IMG/VR virus record: IMGVR_UViG_2582580966_000016
DNA from: a virus
Lineage: Duplodnaviria; Heunggongvirae; Uroviricota; Caudoviricetes
Direction: 5' to 3' (one strand)
Length of the DNA stretch: 4,462 bases
Shown here: piece by piece, positions 1,005 through 4,462 of the stretch
Layout of the letters: the number at the start of each line of letters is the position of its first letter
Numbering within the stretch: the stretch's first letter is position 1
The notes under the pieces: model-generated
Databases searched by the model: none
What the model saw: the letters and a program-made list of their open reading frames with translations, nothing else
What the model was told of the DNA's origin: nothing
Position numbers and translations under genes: made by a program

Positions 1005-1580
1005 CTACGGCAGTGCTGGCCATTCAATATCCGGTGCAGTTGATGTATCAACACGGTTCAGCAACACCCGATACTTTTTCCAGGCTTCCAGCAACAAGGT
1101 TTCTTCCTCCGTTGCGATCTCCAGATCCACAGCATCCTGAAGCGGCGCTATATGCTCACTGGCTATCTGCATCAGGCTGTTTTTTGTTTCTTCCGCCTCC
1201 CGGATCCGGAACAGTTTTTCTGCTTCCGTATCCTTCACCCAGGCTGTGCCGTTCCACTTCTGATATTCCCCTCCCGGCGATAACCAGGTAACATTTTCCG
1301 GTAACGGACCGAGTTCAGAAATAAATAACGCGTCCCCTGATGCCACGTCATAAACCGTTTTACCCCGATGATCTTCAACGAGATGCCACGATGCCTCATC
1401 ACTGTTGAAAACAGCCACGAAGCCTGCCGGAATATCTGGCGGTGCAATATCGGTACTGTTTGCTGGCAGACCTGTATGAGGCGGAATATATGCGTCACCT
1501 TCACCAATAAATTCATTAGTTCCGGCCAGCAGATTATAAATTTTTATGGTCCGTGGTTGTTCACTCATTCTGAATGCCAT
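1005..1580 (-). CDS. tfaQ: Tail fiber assembly protein (lambda Tfa family, TfaQ/TfaR-like), 191 aa
   Basis: 191-aa ORF; N-terminus [51 protein letters not shown] matches my recollection of K-12 TfaQ/TfaR. Its ATG overlaps the stop of the upstream stf remnant (TAATG on the minus strand), the usual stf-tfa coupling arrangement. A GAGG lies about 10 nt upstream. Confidence 0.88.
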
Positions 1581-1888
1581 TACGCAAGCCTCACAATATA
1601 GTTAAATGCGATGTTTTTGACGGTGTTTTCCGCGTTACCAGCAGCGTTAACGGTGATGGTATGTCCATGTGAACCAATCGCAACGGAGTGCGTATGAGCA
1701 CCAATACCGACAGTATGTGCGTGTGCACCTGCGCTTGCAGCAGTACCCGATACAGAGTGCGTATGAGCGCCTGCAGAAGAAGTGTTAACACTGTATTTAG
1801 AATAATCAGGTGATCCACTTCCCGGAGCACCACTGGAACCACCTGAAACAAATGTCATCGAATGGGTATGTGCACCGGCTGTCCCCAT
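1580..1888 (-). pseudogene. stfQ: Side tail fiber protein, C-terminal remnant of about 100 codons (stf'), with four GAHTHS His-box repeats
   Basis: Translation [17 protein letters not shown]...[64 protein letters not shown] is glycine/HxH-rich and typical of lambdoid side tail fiber C-termini. Only the C-terminal part is present; upstream DNA in this frame changes into J-like sequence near 1880. Confidence 0.7.
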
Positions 1889-2170
1889 GCATTTACCGCC
1901 CGGACTGTCAGCCTGTAATTTCCCAGCGCCAGCTGCGTGAAGCGATATGTGGTTTCCGTCGTCCGGGCCGTGCTGACCAACCGCTCACTGCCGTCGTCCG
2001 CTGCCACGGTCAGGCGAAGCATAAAGCTCACCCCCTTCACCACCTTCGGCGTGTCCCAGCGCGCCAGCACCTGGTATTCCCCGCTGTCTGCGGTGACTTC
2101 TGCGGTCAGGTGCTGAACTGCTGGCGGCGTGACACCATTCACCGTGCCGCTCTGGTCACCGTCAAAGTGC
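1855..2170 (-). pseudogene. Internal fragment of a lambda J-like tail tip / host specificity protein (J')
   Basis: Minus-strand translation ...[91 protein letters not shown] matches my recollection of an internal segment of lambda gpJ. It diverges after AVNAWGQ (about 1880) and starts where the Nu1 homology ends (about 2170). Its frame differs from both nohA and stf' (codon phases 0, 2 and 1), so there is no in-frame fusion. Confidence 0.65.
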
Positions 2171-2684
2171 GCCCCGTTATCAGTTCATCCAGCGCGGCTG
2201 CTTTGTTCATGGCTTTGATGATATCCCGTTTCAGGAAATCAACATGTCGGTTTTCCAGTTCCGGAAAACGCCGCTGCACCGACAGGGGGATCCCGTCGAG
2301 AATACTGGCAATTTCACCTGCGATCCGCGACAGCACGAAAGTACAGAATGCGGTTTCCACCACTTCAGCGGAGTCTCTGGCATTTTTCAGTTCCTGTGCG
2401 TCGGCCTGCGCACGCGTAAGTCGATGGCGTTCGTACTCAATAGTCCCTGGCTGGAGATCTGTCTCGCTGGCCTGCCGCAGTTCTTCAACTTCCCGGCGCA
2501 GCTTTTCGTTCTCAATTTCAGCATCCCTTTCGGCATACCATTTTATAACGGCGGCAGAGTCATAAAGCACCTCATTACCCTTGCCACCGCCTCGCAGAAC
2601 GGGCATTCCCTGCTCCTGCCAGTTCTGAATGGTACGGATACTCGCACCGAAAATGTCAGCCAGCTGCTTTTTGTTGACTTTCAT
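2139..2684 (-). CDS. nohA: Terminase small subunit, lambda Nu1 homolog (NohA-like), 181 aa, with the last ~14 residues replaced at a deletion junction
   Basis: N-terminal 167 residues (MKVNKKQLADIFGASIRTIQNWQEQGMPVLRGGGKGNEVLYDSAAVIKWYAERD...) are nearly identical to my recollection of lambda gpNu1 (winged-HTH cosB-binding domain). Lambda-like RBS GTGGAATGAACAATG. C-terminus ...DELITGRTLTVTRAAR differs from lambda ...DELIPGLLSEYIEQSG, placing a junction near 2170-2184. Confidence 0.85.
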   Translation of the reverse strand: MKVNKKQLADIFGASIRTIQNWQEQGMPVLRGGGKGNEVLYDSAAVIKWYAERDAEIENEKLRREVEELRQASETDLQPGTIEYERHRLTRAQADAQELKNARDSAEVVETAFCTFVLSRIAGEIASILDGIPLSVQRRFPELENRHVDFLKRDIIKAMNKAAALDELITGRTLTVTRAAR

Positions 2685-3079: not shown

Positions 3080-3280
3080 ATGTCATCAAAGAACAGAACC
3101 CGCAGAACAACAACCCGCAACATCCGATTTCCAAACCAGATGATTGAACAAATTAACATCGCTCTTGATCTGAAAGGTTCAGGAAACTTTTCAGCGTGGG
3201 TTATTGAAGCCTGCAGGAGAAGGCTGGCAACAGATGCAACGCATCTGCGCCCGGCCAGCATGAAAAATAACGAGAAATGA
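3080..3280 (+). CDS. Small ribbon-helix-helix-like DNA-binding protein, 66 aa (cos-proximal lambdoid ORF, probably YnfO/YlcI family)
   Basis: 66-aa ORF with a basic N-terminus (SKNRTRRTTTR), a predicted beta-strand NIRFP, then two helices (NQMIEQINIALDLKG / NFSAWVIEACRRRL), which is the RHH (Arc/MetJ-like) pattern. Weak SD GGGA 8 nt upstream. Position and orientation (divergent from nohA across cos) match my recollection of ynfO/ylcI in K-12 Qin/DLP12, but I do not recall those sequences well enough to assign the symbol. Confidence 0.75.
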   Translation: MSSKNRTRRTTTRNIRFPNQMIEQINIALDLKGSGNFSAWVIEACRRRLATDATHLRPASMKNNEK

Positions 3281-3411: not shown

Positions 3412-3744
3412 TCAGGGTGCAGAAGGACTAAAGATAAACGTTTTCTTCACGCCTTTACACGGCCTGTCCTTCTCAAATCGCCATTTTGCCATCGCCTTTA
3501 CAACCTGCTCATCAAACAAATGGTGCGGCTCTGAACGGATAAACTCAATTCGGGTGACAGTACCATCAGCACCAATATCAAACTTCACATCAACCCGTCC
3601 CTTTATATAATTTGCCGCTGCATAGGCCGGATATTGTGGTAATGCCTTAACCAACTGTCGGGGCATATCTGTTTTATGTTGCGTACAGCCCATAACCAGA
3701 GAAGACAACAAAATAATTAACGGAAGGTTTCTTTTCATTTTCAT
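3412..3744 (-). CDS. Predicted outer-membrane lipoprotein whose mature part is a TonB C-terminal domain (TonB_C-like), about 110-aa precursor
   Basis: Signal peptide MKRNLPLIILLSSLVMGC with lipobox LVMG-C and Thr at +2 (no Lol avoidance Asp, so predicted outer-membrane sorting). Mature region PQYPAYAAANYIKGRVDVKFDIGADGTVTRIEFIRSEPHHLFDEQVVKAMAKWRFEKDRP aligns by eye to E. coli TonB residues ~160-230 (YP...[49 protein letters not shown]). Start is ambiguous: GTG 3753, ATG 3744 or ATG 3738; 3744 chosen. Confidence 0.8.
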   Translation of the reverse strand: MKMKRNLPLIILLSSLVMGCTQHKTDMPRQLVKALPQYPAYAAANYIKGRVDVKFDIGADGTVTRIEFIRSEPHHLFDEQVVKAMAKWRFEKDRPCKGVKKTFIFSPSAP

Positions 3745-3758
3745 TCCCGGCACAGATA

Positions 3759-3776
3759 AGAATAAGTCTTATTCTA
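3759..3776 (-). promoter_or_regulatory. 17-bp perfect palindrome AGAATAAGtCTTATTCT overlapping a putative -10 (TAGAAT on the minus strand) directly upstream of the TonB_C lipoprotein gene
   Basis: Positions 3759-3775 form a perfect 8-1-8 palindrome. Minus-strand TAGAAT is at 3771-3776, a possible -35 TTGATG at 3796-3801 (19-bp spacer, suboptimal). The start codon is about 20-30 nt downstream. Operator/promoter role is inferred. Confidence 0.35.
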
Positions 3777-3983
3777 ACAATGCCACCCTGTCGGTCATCA
3801 ATCCTCTGCTTAATGGCAACGACAATTATCCGACTTAAATCACAAATCAGACACATGACATAACAGAGCTTGCGAGGTAACACATCGTCCGGTTTCTTCC
3901 ACCATCGCACCGGACCAGCGACCATGAGGGGACAACGCCGCGCTCCGTTAACACGGTAAACCCCGGTGTGTATCGTTTTTGAT

Positions 3984-4048
3984 TATCCCCGCACACTCGC
4001 GCAGAGGAGTCTCCCGGTCGGGCTGCGGTCTCTGTTAATGCGGGGATA
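3984..4048. repeat. Perfect 10-bp inverted repeat TATCCCCGCA / TGCGGGGATA enclosing a 45-nt GC-rich segment; candidate stem-loop or protein-binding element
   Basis: Arms at 3984-3993 and 4039-4048 are exact reverse complements. The enclosed segment has further self-complementarity (CAGAG 4002-4006 with CTCTG 4030-4034; GGAGtCTCC 4006-4014). It lies in a 329-bp ORF-poor gap (3754-4082) between two minus-strand genes. Confidence 0.35.
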
Positions 4049-4082
4049 CGGCGACAATACCGCGCATGGTTAATAAGGTCGC

Positions 4083-4307
4083 TCAACACACTGGCTGTAA
4101 TGCAGCGGATACCATGCGGCATTTAGCGGCATTCATCGTACACTCAACGGTTAGCTCTTCATTCGTGGCATTCACCTGAAAGGTCCGGGAGTGTAATTGC
4201 GTACATTTACCACTGAACGAACCTTCAACAAGAACACGACCACGCTGCAAAATACGGAACGGAATTGTTCCCTGAAAAGGCTTTACGGTTACCAGTAATT
4301 TCTTCAT
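4083..4307 (-). CDS. Hypothetical 74-aa protein, unrecognised, encoded directly downstream of Rz/Rz1 in the late-operon orientation
   Basis: ATG at 4307-4305 preceded by GGAG with 5-nt spacing (tccGGAGaatgcATG); the ORF-track start at 4325 is a TTG 18 nt upstream. Codon usage looks enterobacterial (CTG, CGT, GGT, ACC). No signal peptide; four Cys (34, 54, 61, 74). Translation MKKLLVTVKPFQGTIPFRILQRGRVLVEGSFSGKCTQLHSRTFQVNATNEELTVECTMNAAKCRMVSAALQPVC. Begins 23 nt after the Rz stop. Confidence 0.6.
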   Translation of the reverse strand: MKKLLVTVKPFQGTIPFRILQRGRVLVEGSFSGKCTQLHSRTFQVNATNEELTVECTMNAAKCRMVSAALQPVC

Positions 4308-4330
4308 GCATTCTCCGGATAACAAAAATA

Positions 4331-4462
4331 CTAGTTAATACACTGAGTGCGGATATATTCCTGCGCCCCTTCCAGTTGCTTCTGCATTGTCATCAACCGC
4401 TCTCTGAGGGTGAAATAATCCCGTTCAGCGGTGTCTGCCAGTCGGGGGCCGGTTGCATTATC
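4331..4462 (-). CDS. Rz: Rz (i-spanin, inner-membrane spanin subunit), C-terminal 43 codons; gene continues beyond the window end
   Basis: Not in the ORF track because no start lies in the window. Minus-strand frame open from the window edge to TAG at 4333-4331; translation DNATGPRLADTAERDYFTLRERLMTMQKQLEGAQEYIRTQCIN closely matches my recollection of the lambda Rz C-terminus (...SPRLADTAERDYFTLRERLITMQKQLEGTQKYINEQCR). Confidence 0.85.
   Translation of the reverse strand, partial: DNATGPRLADTAERDYFTLRERLMTMQKQLEGAQEYIRTQCIN
4393..4461 (-). CDS. Rz1: Rz1 (o-spanin, outer-membrane lipoprotein spanin subunit), C-terminal 22 codons, embedded in the +1 frame of Rz
   Basis: Second minus-strand frame translates IMQPAPDWQTPLNGIISPSESG then TGA (4395-4393), matching my recollection of the lambda Rz1 C-terminus (...AWIMQPPPDWQTPLNGIISPSERG). 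Embedded out-of-frame within Rz as in lambda. Confidence 0.8.
   Translation of the reverse strand: MMQPAPDWQTPLNGIISPSESG

Follow-up and report, generated by a model that had tools for sequence, protein, structure and literature searches.

RNase III signals are known from phage T7, where those of the R1.1 type lie between cistrons and span about two helical turns, and from lambda, where sites occur in the N leader and at sib. In HK022, which has no N, the put RNAs (two stem-loops, ~70 nt), located just downstream of the early promoters, act in cis in antitermination. Small RNAs have also been described from lambdoid phages. AsxR and AgvB (51–60 nt) have their own starts and lie just 3′ of PR′, before the lysis genes (PMC4104026); they form the Rfam families RF02702 and RF02703, with a conserved 3′ region. 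The lambda RNAs PreS/LPR1, LPR2 and 6S, expressed mainly during lytic growth, were recognised recently, with LPR1 placed between ea10 and ral and ending at tL2a, and LPR2 and 6S near PR′ (bioRxiv 10.1101/2024.10.31.621285).

Here, we describe an element found in a 4,462-nt stretch of Caudoviricetes phage DNA (the window, numbered from its first letter), in which a sequence-only reading had put forward the segment 3754–4082 as a candidate structured RNA or regulatory element. Pairing and covariation across alleles support that proposal, and the selected strand, which the reading had left unnamed, is the minus strand of the window, that is, the late-sense strand. We tentatively favour the interpretation that this non-coding lambdoid module is a folded RNA acting in cis within the late transcript, most likely as a signal for processing or stability. 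The case is built on comparison rather than stability, because the predicted folding energy is unremarkable.

Limits, occurrence and coding content of the element

The arms TATCCCCGCA (3984–3993) and TGCGGGGATA (4039–4048) are exact reverse complements with a 45-nt spacer, precisely as the reading had described its 10-bp inverted repeat. No other perfect 10-bp inverted repeat (loop of 3–150 nt) occurs in the whole window, and such a repeat arose in 120 of 5000 dinucleotide-preserving shuffles of 3754–4082 (~2.4%). The inverted repeat is the core of a ~180-nt non-coding element. The 329-bp segment originally proposed does contain this conserved element, but its limits were drawn too wide, the gap consisting of two parts:

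3888–4067, minus strand: the whole conserved element, ~180 nt, delimited by unrelated flanks in a nine-phage alignment and by the extent of the BLAST cores.
3754–3887, minus strand: AT-rich stretch outside the element, lying upstream of the TonB_C lipoprotein gene.

The second part carries a promoter-like site at 3798–3771 and a palindrome, AGAATAAG/CTTATTCT, at 3759–3775, is kept only in relatives that carry the lipoprotein gene too, and looks like the promoter region of this TonB-like lipoprotein gene.

The element matches 398 phage records and 1,911 of 5,426 complete Escherichia coli genomes (about a third), with copies at up to nine places per genome. It is common to lambda, 933W-type Stx phages, BP-4795 and many prophages; HK97, HK022 and P22 are without it, and it is therefore accessory and dispensable for late expression in general. 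The lambda copy (46,868–47,033) occupies the stretch between bor and lambdap78, which is unannotated in the RefSeq record; a CRISPRi essentiality map of lambda scores both of these genes as non-essential and does not address the element (PMC10695390). The literature search found no published description of the element, a full-text search with the core sequence returned unrelated primer matches only, and no mention of it was found in the supplementary files of the sRNA papers examined.

In lambda-, 933W-, BP-4795-, 4A7- and PhiR40_1-like phages, whose terminases differ, the ~180-nt core has sharp edges and unrelated flanks. Wherever it is found, the element lies close behind the lysis genes: all 225 loci with an Rz homologue have it upstream on the strand of the element, and the orientation relative to late transcription is invariant at these loci. 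In the 110 cases with bor, this gene is antisense throughout and stands between Rz and the element. What lies downstream varies: the window has a TonB-like lipoprotein gene there, 933W has terminase, and lambda and BP-4795 have genes in antisense orientation. The next gene in the sense direction follows at widely differing distances, and in 933W-type phages the element ends ~55 nt ahead of the small terminase gene. A position exactly at a mosaic junction, with both flanks unrelated, is consistent with a DNA element, either a linker for homologous exchange of lysis and packaging modules or a single-stranded DNA hairpin acting as a priming or recombination site. At one locus (L137), an inserted gene lies between two direct copies spaced 950 nt apart, and several loci have copies truncated at differing breakpoints, as such an element might leave. 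On the other hand, no recombinase, integrase or replication gene accompanies the element in the phage loci examined, its orientation to late transcription does not change, and a recombination linker requires identity, not pairing. Taken with the strand preference described below, these observations make a DNA element improbable.

The description of the segment as ORF-poor holds. Two ORFs of the window overlie it, one of 91 aa on the minus strand and one of 35 aa on the plus strand, and neither is conserved as a frame (stops in 22/64 and 9/64 alleles, respectively). A gene for a small protein, whether a plus-strand ORF of 35–60 aa or a sense ORF of 81–91 aa (PHROG 6954), would be in keeping with a plus frame that is open in 80/83 and 55/64 alleles, with an in-frame 9-nt deletion in one allele, and with the ORFs annotated over the element in several records (on the plus strand in 4A7, D2 and PhiR40_1), of which the sense ORF has a PHROG family. 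However, the strand of the annotated ORFs differs among records, and variable sites fall at the three codon positions in the ratio 11:6:9, with no third-position excess. At the most variable site, an in-frame TGA interrupts the sense frame; the plus frame would start with GTG, with no Shine-Dalgarno-like sequence seen ahead of it, and ends after 22 codons in lambda and 933W types, in which nucleotide conservation runs past the stop. Lambda and its sister allele differ by a 1-nt indel within the conserved core, and no Pfam family matched. Thus on neither strand is a frame open in all alleles with variation concentrated at third positions, a coding function is highly improbable, and the ‘hypothetical protein’ and ‘Rz-like spanin’ calls over the element are probably annotation artefacts. 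A 10-codon sense mini-ORF (AUG CGC ... CAU UAA) was also rejected, as its third codon is UGA in the lambda and 933W alleles.

Helices and covariation on the late-sense strand

The fold was examined over about 90 distinct alleles (94 distinct sequences) and, for the 5′ domain, in alignment A3 of 64 distinct alleles. Its parts are as follows:

3965–4066, minus strand: 5′ domain P1-P2-P3-P3a, a long irregular hairpin, the best-conserved 102 nt, represented by covariance model R1.
4054–4060, minus strand: P1 5′ arm, GUAUUGU, partner of 3970–3976.
3970–3976, minus strand: P1 3′ arm, ACGAUAC, partner of 4054–4060.
4038–4048, minus strand: P2 5′ arm, UAUCCCCGCAU, the right arm of the inverted repeat plus one U·G pair.
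3984–3994, minus strand: P2 3′ arm, GUGCGGGGAUA, the left arm of the inverted repeat plus one base.
4023–4027, minus strand: P3 5′ arm, CGCAG, partner of 4000–4004.
4000–4004, minus strand: P3 3′ arm, CUGCG, partner of 4023–4027.
4013–4022, minus strand: P3a terminal hairpin, CCC-NNNN-GGG, with the variable bases in the loop.
3928–3964, minus strand: P4 (GGG/CCC) around the variable hairpin P5, tentative.
3888–3914, minus strand: P6 hairpin, UCCGGU/15-nt loop/ACCGGA, the loop ending in the invariant GGAAGAA.

The mean column identity of A3 is 89%, and model R1 scores 121 bits for the window and 98.8 bits for lambda. The seven pairs of P1 are formed in 97.8% of cells, with changes from U·G to C-G and from U-A to U·G, and the eleven pairs of P2 in 98.7%, with both-sided changes of the series UA/UG/CG, CG/UG/UA and CG/UG/GC. 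In P3, a C-G pair becomes U·G in 28/64 alleles, and where the variable base is G a sixth pair forms. The P3a hairpin is absent through a 9-nt deletion in four loci (L006, L051, L062 and L158), and the P3 stem is retained in the Lyz12581-type allele despite this loss. Further downstream, P5 is CCGUG/CGCGG in the window (3952–3956 with 3938–3942) and appears in other alleles in self-complementary versions (CCGCG/CGCGG, CUGUG/CGCAG, CUCAU/AUGGG and CCGCGC/GCGCGG); P4 and P5 are uncertain because single-sequence folds differ among alleles, and the 3′ domain as a whole folds inconsistently from allele to allele in such predictions. At the central pair of P6, 52 alleles have G-C, 24 have U-A, 11 have G·U and seven have a mismatch, and a possible alternative to P6 pairs CCGGUG with an upstream CACCGG. 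Three unpaired stretches, AUUAAC, AAUCAAAAACGAU and GGAAGAA, are invariant. Pairing between the P6 loop and the P3 junction, sought by eye on the alignment, proved inconsistent between alleles and was rejected. As a side observation, CGCAUUAAC resembles a boxA sequence, a resemblance only.

The lambda arms, TATTCCCGGAT (46886–46896) and GTCCGGGAATA (46940–46950), contain TTCCCGG/CCGGGAA, exactly as stated in the sequence-only reading, and the covariation proposed from this comparison is real and reaches beyond the one stem to P1, P2, P3 and P6. In the minus-strand alignment, 98.1% of 2896 cells are paired, compared with 36–63% when partners are slid by 1–3 columns, and substitutions among the aligned alleles therefore keep pairing beyond both slid and shuffled controls. 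The observed covariation score was reached by none of 500 shuffles, as was that of the 5′ domain with the lambda alleles included (95.2% paired, four pairs altered on both sides, 0/500), although shuffle controls overstate significance for a set of related, mosaic sequences such as this one. Both-sided changes affect three P2 pairs and one P6 pair. The L137-type allele, retrieved without conditioning on the stem, completes a path from C-G through U·G to U-A; L140, L146 and L155, retrieved in the same way, have G·U at another pair, and the lambda allele shows a C-G to G-C transversion. The P2 pyrimidine arm varies at five positions and the purine arm only where the change is compensated or wobble-compatible. 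About 4–5 pairs are fully compensated, so few because divergence is shallow and the alleles are mosaic and related. Real mismatches also occur, namely U·C at one P2 pair in ~15/94 distinct sequences (6/64 5′-domain alleles) and G·G in 933W and DLP12.

The tolerated changes differ by strand, leaving 98.0% of minus-strand cells paired and 88.8% of plus-strand cells. Among pair types seen in at least two sequences, those that are G·U on the minus strand outnumber those that are A·C by 20 to 4 (binomial p = 0.0015); with all pair types counted, the numbers are 24 and 9 (p = 0.014), and unpaired columns have no purine/pyrimidine bias (13 vs 12). The minus strand has the lower RNAalifold consensus energy, −26.9 against −15.1 on the plus strand. 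The fourth P2 pair is a minus-strand U·G, and hence a plus-strand C·A mismatch, in 45/94 distinct sequences, and further pairs behave alike; the constraint is strand-specific because what would be C·A on the plus strand is G·U on the minus strand in most alleles. The symmetric pairing on both strands expected of a DNA cruciform or palindromic protein site is thus not seen, and the protein-binding cruciform offered in the sequence-only reading is disfavoured. In a DNA hairpin, too, G·T wobbles do the least harm of all mismatches, so strand-specific pairing alone is no proof of RNA; a one-strand wobble preference of 20 to 4 would nonetheless be unexpected of a recombination linker. Pairs compensated or kept as wobbles on one strand are those of a conserved structured RNA, albeit in a set that is related and mosaic, and we conclude that an RNA structure on the late-sense strand is probably under selection.

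Folding energies bear on the same question. The minimum free energy fold of the window sequence recovers P1 and P2, but the energy is barely better than that of shuffles: z-scores are about −1.9 and −1.6, with −0.1 for the full length, and the energy of the whole element does not differ from that of shuffles on either strand. These modest values, the few fully compensated pairs and the shallow divergence (76–99% identity, with hosts essentially Escherichia, Shigella and, for a few phages, Salmonella) would suit a shared mosaic segment without function, for example an old gene-end remnant hitch-hiking with the lysis module, in which covariation arose by chance among relatives. A scan of species-representative genomes gave seven matches, in Escherichia and likely contaminant contigs, and therefore no deeper divergence. 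We nevertheless hold such a remnant to be very improbable, given the strand asymmetry that is unmatched in unpaired columns, the restriction of purine-arm variation in P2, the retention of P3 after loss of the terminal hairpin, and the persistence of the element beside many different neighbour genes.

Possible roles in the late transcript

The element has neither a terminator nor a conserved promoter. A scan found no intrinsic terminator at the element on either strand, nor a GC stem with a U/T tract; P2 is followed by AUCAAAAACG in the minus-strand sequence and by CGGCGAC in that of the plus strand, and no T run follows the arms, in agreement with the earlier view that the stem is not a canonical terminator. 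A weak promoter-like site on the plus strand (TTAACA-17-TATCGT, 3948–3976) was rejected because many alleles have CATCGT as its −10 and its −35 falls within the region of the variable hairpin P5, and a conserved promoter is absent because the flanks are unrelated between alleles. Unconserved flanks, together with the absence of a conserved promoter and of a terminator, fit a cis element within a longer RNA, and we infer that the element is transcribed only within the late transcript.

In our preferred reading, the Q-dependent late transcript would run through the element on the minus strand, after the lysis cassette and before the packaging genes. There, the RNA is predicted to form an irregular hairpin of ~100 nt, in which internal loops separate P1 (7 bp) from P2 (11 bp) and P2 from P3 (5–6 bp), with a small hairpin at its tip; the variable hairpin comes next, and then the 3′ hairpin with the GGAAGAA loop, the fold being the object of selection. 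It may act in cis to direct the processing or stability of the long polycistronic RNA: RNase III, or another nuclease specific for double strands, would cleave the bubble-interrupted helix and part the RNA of the lysis genes from that of the packaging and head genes, and the hairpins would protect the new RNA ends, as they do at T7 intercistronic RNase III sites. P1, a 5 × 7 internal loop and P2 are conserved and covarying, with a geometry that is compatible with RNase III and not specific to it, and by analogy would span about two helical turns, the size of a T7-type signal. The strong conservation of unpaired bases argues against a plain nuclease site, which leaves it unexplained. The processing or stability mechanism itself is accordingly put forward with some reserve, as a possibility inferred from the fold and its setting.

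The invariance of the unpaired stretches AUUAAC, AAUCAAAAACGAU and GGAAGAA suggests specific recognition, not mere pairing, and would suit a stable, structured non-coding RNA acting in trans, cut from the late transcript or made from an allele-specific upstream promoter, with a protein or RNA of the host or phage as its binding partner in lytic growth. The element is a moron-like accessory module, missing from HK97, HK022 and P22 yet carried by so many E. coli genomes, and lambdoid phages do encode regulatory RNAs at moron positions (AsxR, AgvB; PreS/LPR1, LPR2). However, it has no conserved promoter, terminator or U tail, and so lacks the own promoter and U-tailed terminator hairpin of an Hfq-dependent sRNA gene. 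It is not among the lambda RNAs recovered by Hfq RIL-seq (bioRxiv 10.1101/2024.10.31.621285), nor in the supplementary files noted above. With E values up to 10 allowed, an Rfam 15 cmscan covering the whole window matched no family in 3754–4082, and ARAGORN found no tRNA or tmRNA gene in the window; the sole real Rfam match in the window is IS009 at 1039–1237. An RNA acting in trans is thus unlikely. Known RNAs were considered as candidates and set aside: the element, lying after Rz, ~180 nt long and unmatched in Rfam, does not belong to the AsxR/AgvB group; AsxR/AgvB, PreS/LPR1, LPR2 and 6S, as well as ylcJ of K-12, are located elsewhere; and identity with PasB, a Pas sRNA, is unlikely because PasB is described as lying among structural genes.

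Alternatively, the element may be a leader or switch for the downstream genes (terminase, morons), in which CCGGUG pairs with either the upstream CACCGG or the downstream ACCGGA of P6. Three mutually complementary CCGG-type segments are conserved, single-sequence folds alternate between both pairings across alleles, and the 933W-type element ends shortly before the small terminase gene. Nevertheless, the downstream gene is not constant among phages and the next sense gene lies at a widely varying distance, neither pairing hides a terminator or ribosome-binding site, and covariation backs P6 (G-C to U-A, 24 alleles), with the alternative helix in L099 only. We therefore regard a switch of this kind as having little probability. 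There is a modest chance that the element is, in lambda and the Shiga-toxin phages, a functional RNA not described before, placed between the lysis genes and cos/terminase, whose conserved internal loops and GGAAGAA loop would be read by a specific host or phage factor, either switching the expression or timing of lysis versus packaging or being released to act in trans.

Relation to known systems

If the fold is real, it would be a new regulatory part in the late operons of Stx-converting phages, in which late transcription drives toxin release, and of lambda, whose genome is one of the best annotated but is blank at this stretch. Hundreds of phages, and some third of the complete E. coli genomes, would share the fold.

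AsxR and AgvB resemble the element as non-coding modules with a fixed position in mosaic surroundings, carried by lambdoid prophages of pathogenic E. coli in their late region; the element differs in following Rz, in its ~180-nt length, in having neither its own promoter nor its own terminator, and in matching no Rfam family. None of PreS/LPR1, LPR2 and 6S maps to 46.87–47.03 kb of lambda, where the element lies. Like integron attC and other folded single-stranded DNA sites, the element has imperfect inverted repeats constrained on one strand, and its copies can flank an inserted gene (L137). Unlike attC, which keeps structure and not sequence, its sequence is highly conserved, no integrase is near it, and its orientation is tied to late transcription. 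The put RNAs, which are likewise defined by stems and not by a protein, offer a parallel as structured cis RNAs in a lambdoid operon, to the extent that the action proposed for the element is correct; late transcription, however, already has Q, and HK022 itself is without the element.

The T7 R1.1-type signals and lambda RNase III sites differ from the element in having no sequence similarity to it, and in being shorter than its ~180 nt with a second domain; the unpaired bases of the element are also far more conserved than a nuclease site would require. They share with it a hairpin without promoter or terminator in a long phage polycistronic RNA, lying between gene blocks and strand-specific, with two helices of ~7–11 bp joined by an internal loop. 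A role in processing or stability, if borne out, would make the element a lambdoid counterpart of the T7 intercistronic RNase III sites.

Genomic setting and limits of the element

The element is a sharply bounded, non-coding, strand-specifically paired module in the late transcription unit. The window is a piece of an E. coli lambdoid prophage, reversed in orientation relative to the lambda map, with the following features.

4330–4462, minus strand: Rz C-terminus
4083–4307, minus strand: 74-aa ORF, between Rz and the gap that holds the element
3412–3738, minus strand: lipoprotein of 108 aa with a TonB_C domain (PF03544, E = 1.3e-14)
3080–3280, plus strand: DUF3950 (YnfO/YlcI) gene
about 2862–2873: cos sequence, between the lipoprotein and the Nu1-type gene
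2139–2684, minus strand: Nu1-type small terminase gene

From this gene order and established lambda biology, we infer that late transcription from PR' runs along the minus strand. The prophage of strain CB6837 is 99.5% identical to the window, with identical gene order, and continues into intact terminase and portal genes. In the window (1580–2684), a large terminase gene is missing after the Nu1-type ORF; its place is taken by short ORFs that by eye resemble tail-fibre or J fragments, and then come tfa and a pin-type invertase (317–907). As terminase and portal are intact in the near-identical relative L001, the window's prophage appears to be a cryptic one whose head and tail genes have been lost. 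The 74-aa ORF aligns to only positions 100–172 of the 291-position PHROG profile phrog_2571 (unknown function), and could be part of a longer gene rather than complete in itself. A full-length Rfam match to IS009 (RF02111; 1039–1237, minus strand, 221.5 bits, E = 2.9e-55) sits within the tail-fibre-assembly ORF (1005–1580, minus strand), so that this ‘sRNA’ family overlaps coding sequence here.

The sequence-only reading had proposed the whole 329-bp gap (3754–4082) as a candidate structured RNA or regulatory element. The element does lie within this gap, but the common core defined by BLAST is narrower, at 3888–4067, leaving 3754–3887 outside. The latter stretch is kept only in relatives that also carry the lipoprotein gene, and directly upstream of that gene it carries a promoter-like site (3798–3771, minus strand) and a 17-bp palindrome, AGAATAAGTCTTATTCT (3759–3775), which overlaps the −10 of the site and shares 13 of the 19 bases of the Fur-box consensus. 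The stretch looks like the lipoprotein gene's own control region, and the Fur-box resemblance hints that iron regulates this TonB_C moron. The top Fur-box-like match of the window is elsewhere (2905–2929, 15/19, a GATAATGATTATC-type palindrome 30–60 bp from cos on the right-end side), and may be just the AT-rich palindrome that lambda also has near cosQ.

Distribution, neighbours and coding potential

In BLAST searches, 398 of 50,697 phage records and 1,911 of 5,426 complete E. coli genomes share the core, the genomes having it at a median of two and up to nine places each. In an alignment of nine phages, including a lambda-like phage, a 933W-type Stx phage, BP-4795, 4A7 and PhiR40_1, similarity begins and ends abruptly at 3888 and 4067, and the flanks are unrelated. 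Identity among copies falls no lower than about 76%, and when each species was represented by a single genome, the matches were essentially confined to Escherichia. Its position is constant, 3' of the lysis cassette and 5' of the packaging genes, while its neighbours differ as follows.

Lambda and DLP12: flanked by bor and a DUF1398 gene, each antisense to the late transcript
933W type: flanked by bor and the gene for the small terminase subunit, ending about 55 nt before the latter
BP-4795: 10 nt downstream of Rz
Other phage types: other arrangements

An Rz homologue is present at 225 of the 252 collected copies, in every case upstream and on the same strand (73–1820 nt away, median 506), and bor, present at 110, is always antisense and between Rz and the element. 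The lambda copy occupies 46,868–47,033, where no feature is annotated. R1, a covariance model of the 5' domain (3965–4066), scores the window copy at 121 bits and lambda's at 98.8 bits, and returned no match in the complete HK97, HK022 and P22 genomes; by this search the module is thus accessory, and late expression in lambdoid phages does not generally depend on it.

In contig L137, two direct copies (5057–5157 and 6007–6107; R1 scores of 115 and 117 bits) lie 950 nt apart and flank an inserted ORF on the late-sense strand, with Rz and a 103-aa ORF preceding them and the second copy about 330 nt before Nu1. Several loci hold truncated copies with differing break points, which fits a place at a recombination-prone module boundary. 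One rival reading would make the element a functionless hitch-hiker. The K-12-type DLP12 prophage (L171:1508–1609, in a K-12-like genome, between ybcV and bor) has a complete 5' domain (100.7 bits), with the 3'-domain BLAST match being only a 15-nt piece, and could be a convenient K-12 experimental locus.

A small protein would be another rival reading, and it was excluded. Records disagree on whether the core contains an ORF and on which strand it lies. The sense frame (a 91-aa ORF in the window) is stopped in 22 of 64 distinct alleles, with TGA at the most variable site, and the plus frame (35 aa in the window) is open for just 22 codons in the lambda and 933W-type alleles, with nucleotide conservation running past the stop. 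In the best plus frame, variable sites are spread 11:6:9 over the codon positions. Lambda also differs from its commonest sister allele (42 IMG/VR contigs) by a 1-nt deletion within the core, in an internal-loop A-run (UUAAAACGAU versus UUAAAAACGAU), and a Pfam search of the element ORFs gave no match, all of which bears out the sequence-only reading that there is no credible coding frame. In 933W-type phages, gene callers put an ORF across the element (L003:1443–1688) that matches phrog_6954, labelled ‘Rz-like spanin’, as is phrog_1267, which the lipoprotein matches; both labels look wrong, and the name is repeated in RefSeq phage records.

Covariation and strand asymmetry of the pairing

The arms TATCCCCGCA (3984–3993) and TGCGGGGATA (4039–4048) are exact reverse complements separated by 45 nt, as first noted from the sequence, and form the sole perfect 10-bp inverted repeat with a 3–150-nt loop in the window. 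When the 329-bp segment is shuffled with its dinucleotides preserved, such a repeat arises 2.4% of the time; by itself it is mildly unusual, and the comparative evidence is the strong part. IMG/VR copies were gathered with three anchor patterns, chosen to keep the search from fixing any one stem, and BLAST-derived loci were added, giving alignments of 76 distinct full-length copies (A2) and of 64 distinct 5' domains, lambda types among them (A3). The RNAalifold consensus is −26.9 kcal/mol for the minus strand versus −15.1 kcal/mol for the plus strand. The helices, read off the alignment in window coordinates and all on the minus strand, are as follows.

P1: 4054–4060 with 3970–3976
P2: 4038–4048 with 3984–3994, the inverted repeat plus one U·G pair
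P3: 4023–4027 with 4000–4004
P3a: terminal CCC-NNNN-GGG hairpin
P4/P5: variable hairpin closed by a tentative GGG/CCC helix
P6: 3909–3914 with 3888–3893

In A2, 98.1% of 2896 cells are standard-paired, falling to 36–63% when partners are slid by 1–3 columns, and none of 500 shuffles attains the observed pairing or covariation score. In A3, 95.2% are paired (98.7% in P2), four pairs are changed on both sides, and the covariation score is again reached in 0/500 shuffles; the sequences are related and mosaic, so this control overstates significance. Three P2 pairs show substitution paths: U-A/U·G/C-G, then C-G/U·G/U-A (the U-A allele coming from a search without this stem fixed), then C-G/U·G/G-C, whose G-C form is lambda's TTCCCGG/CCGGGAA, exactly as given in the sequence-only reading. 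The central pair of P6 is G-C in 52 alleles, with 24 others carrying U-A and 11 carrying G·U. P2 has real mismatches as well: about 15 of the 94 distinct sequences show U·C at one pair, and the alleles of 933W and DLP12 show G·G. The terminal hairpin (9–10 nt) is missing from a 933W-related allele that retains P3. Folding energy lies marginally below that of shuffles for the 5' domain (z = −1.9 minus, −1.6 plus), but at about 0 for the full length.

A Watson-Crick pair can undergo two transitions, one of which leaves G·U on the minus strand and the other on the plus strand. Pair types wobble-compatible on only one strand favour the minus strand by 20 to 4 among types in at least two sequences (p = 0.0015) and by 24 to 9 among all types (p = 0.014), with 98.0% of cells paired on the minus strand versus 88.8% on the plus. 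Unpaired polymorphic columns are unbiased (purine/pyrimidine 13 versus 12), so mutational strand bias does not explain the asymmetry. The asymmetry rules out a symmetric DNA palindrome, and with it the cruciform once proposed for the repeat, and in these alignments points to RNA in the late-transcript sense. A DNA-level linker or single-stranded DNA site is a rival reading, and single-stranded DNA of the minus strand is a less likely source. An RNA structure is the probable reading. The original observation is confirmed, and the interpretation given with it is supported and made sharper, with tighter limits, a defined strand, and the cruciform and coding alternatives ruled out.

Possible roles and comparison with known RNAs

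Scans and the nine-phage alignment revealed no promoter or terminator belonging to the element, and no terminator-like site at the repeat, as had been anticipated. We infer that the element acts as an RNA inside the late transcript; release from that transcript as a trans-acting RNA is a rival. A leader or switch is another, as the 3' domain, whose fold differs between alleles, holds three conserved, mutually complementary minus-strand segments, CACCGG, UCCGGUG and ACCGGA (3960–3967, 3909–3914 and 3888–3893), permitting two exclusive pairings; a change in L099 would compensate in the alternative helix.

Our preferred reading, put forward tentatively, is that the element may be a processing or stability signal on the late transcript. 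In the predicted fold, P1, the bubble and P2 would together span some two helical turns, as in the intercistronic RNase III signals of T7, placed where the transcript would exit the lysis genes into a stretch with perhaps few or no sense-strand genes. In lambda, this stretch covers about 1.3 kb between the stop codon of Rz (46,427) and lambdap79 (47,738), antisense to bor and lambdap78.

Rfam contains no family matching the element. In a full-text literature collection with few older lambda papers, nothing relevant turned up either for the core sequence or for any conserved non-coding stretch separating spanin from terminase genes. As far as we can tell from this collection, Rfam and the RNAs named below, the element represents a structured-RNA motif of lambda-like phages that is new and has no name, and its main interest is that it is present in lambda and Stx phages and directly testable. 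Among known lambdoid RNAs, lambda PreS/LPR1 occupies the interval from ea10 to ral, with LPR2 and 6S near PR'. Of the Pas sRNAs, PasB is described as located among structural genes, so that identity with the element is unlikely. The prophage anti-sRNAs AsxR and AgvB (51–60 nt) lie just after PR', whereas the element follows the lysis cassette.
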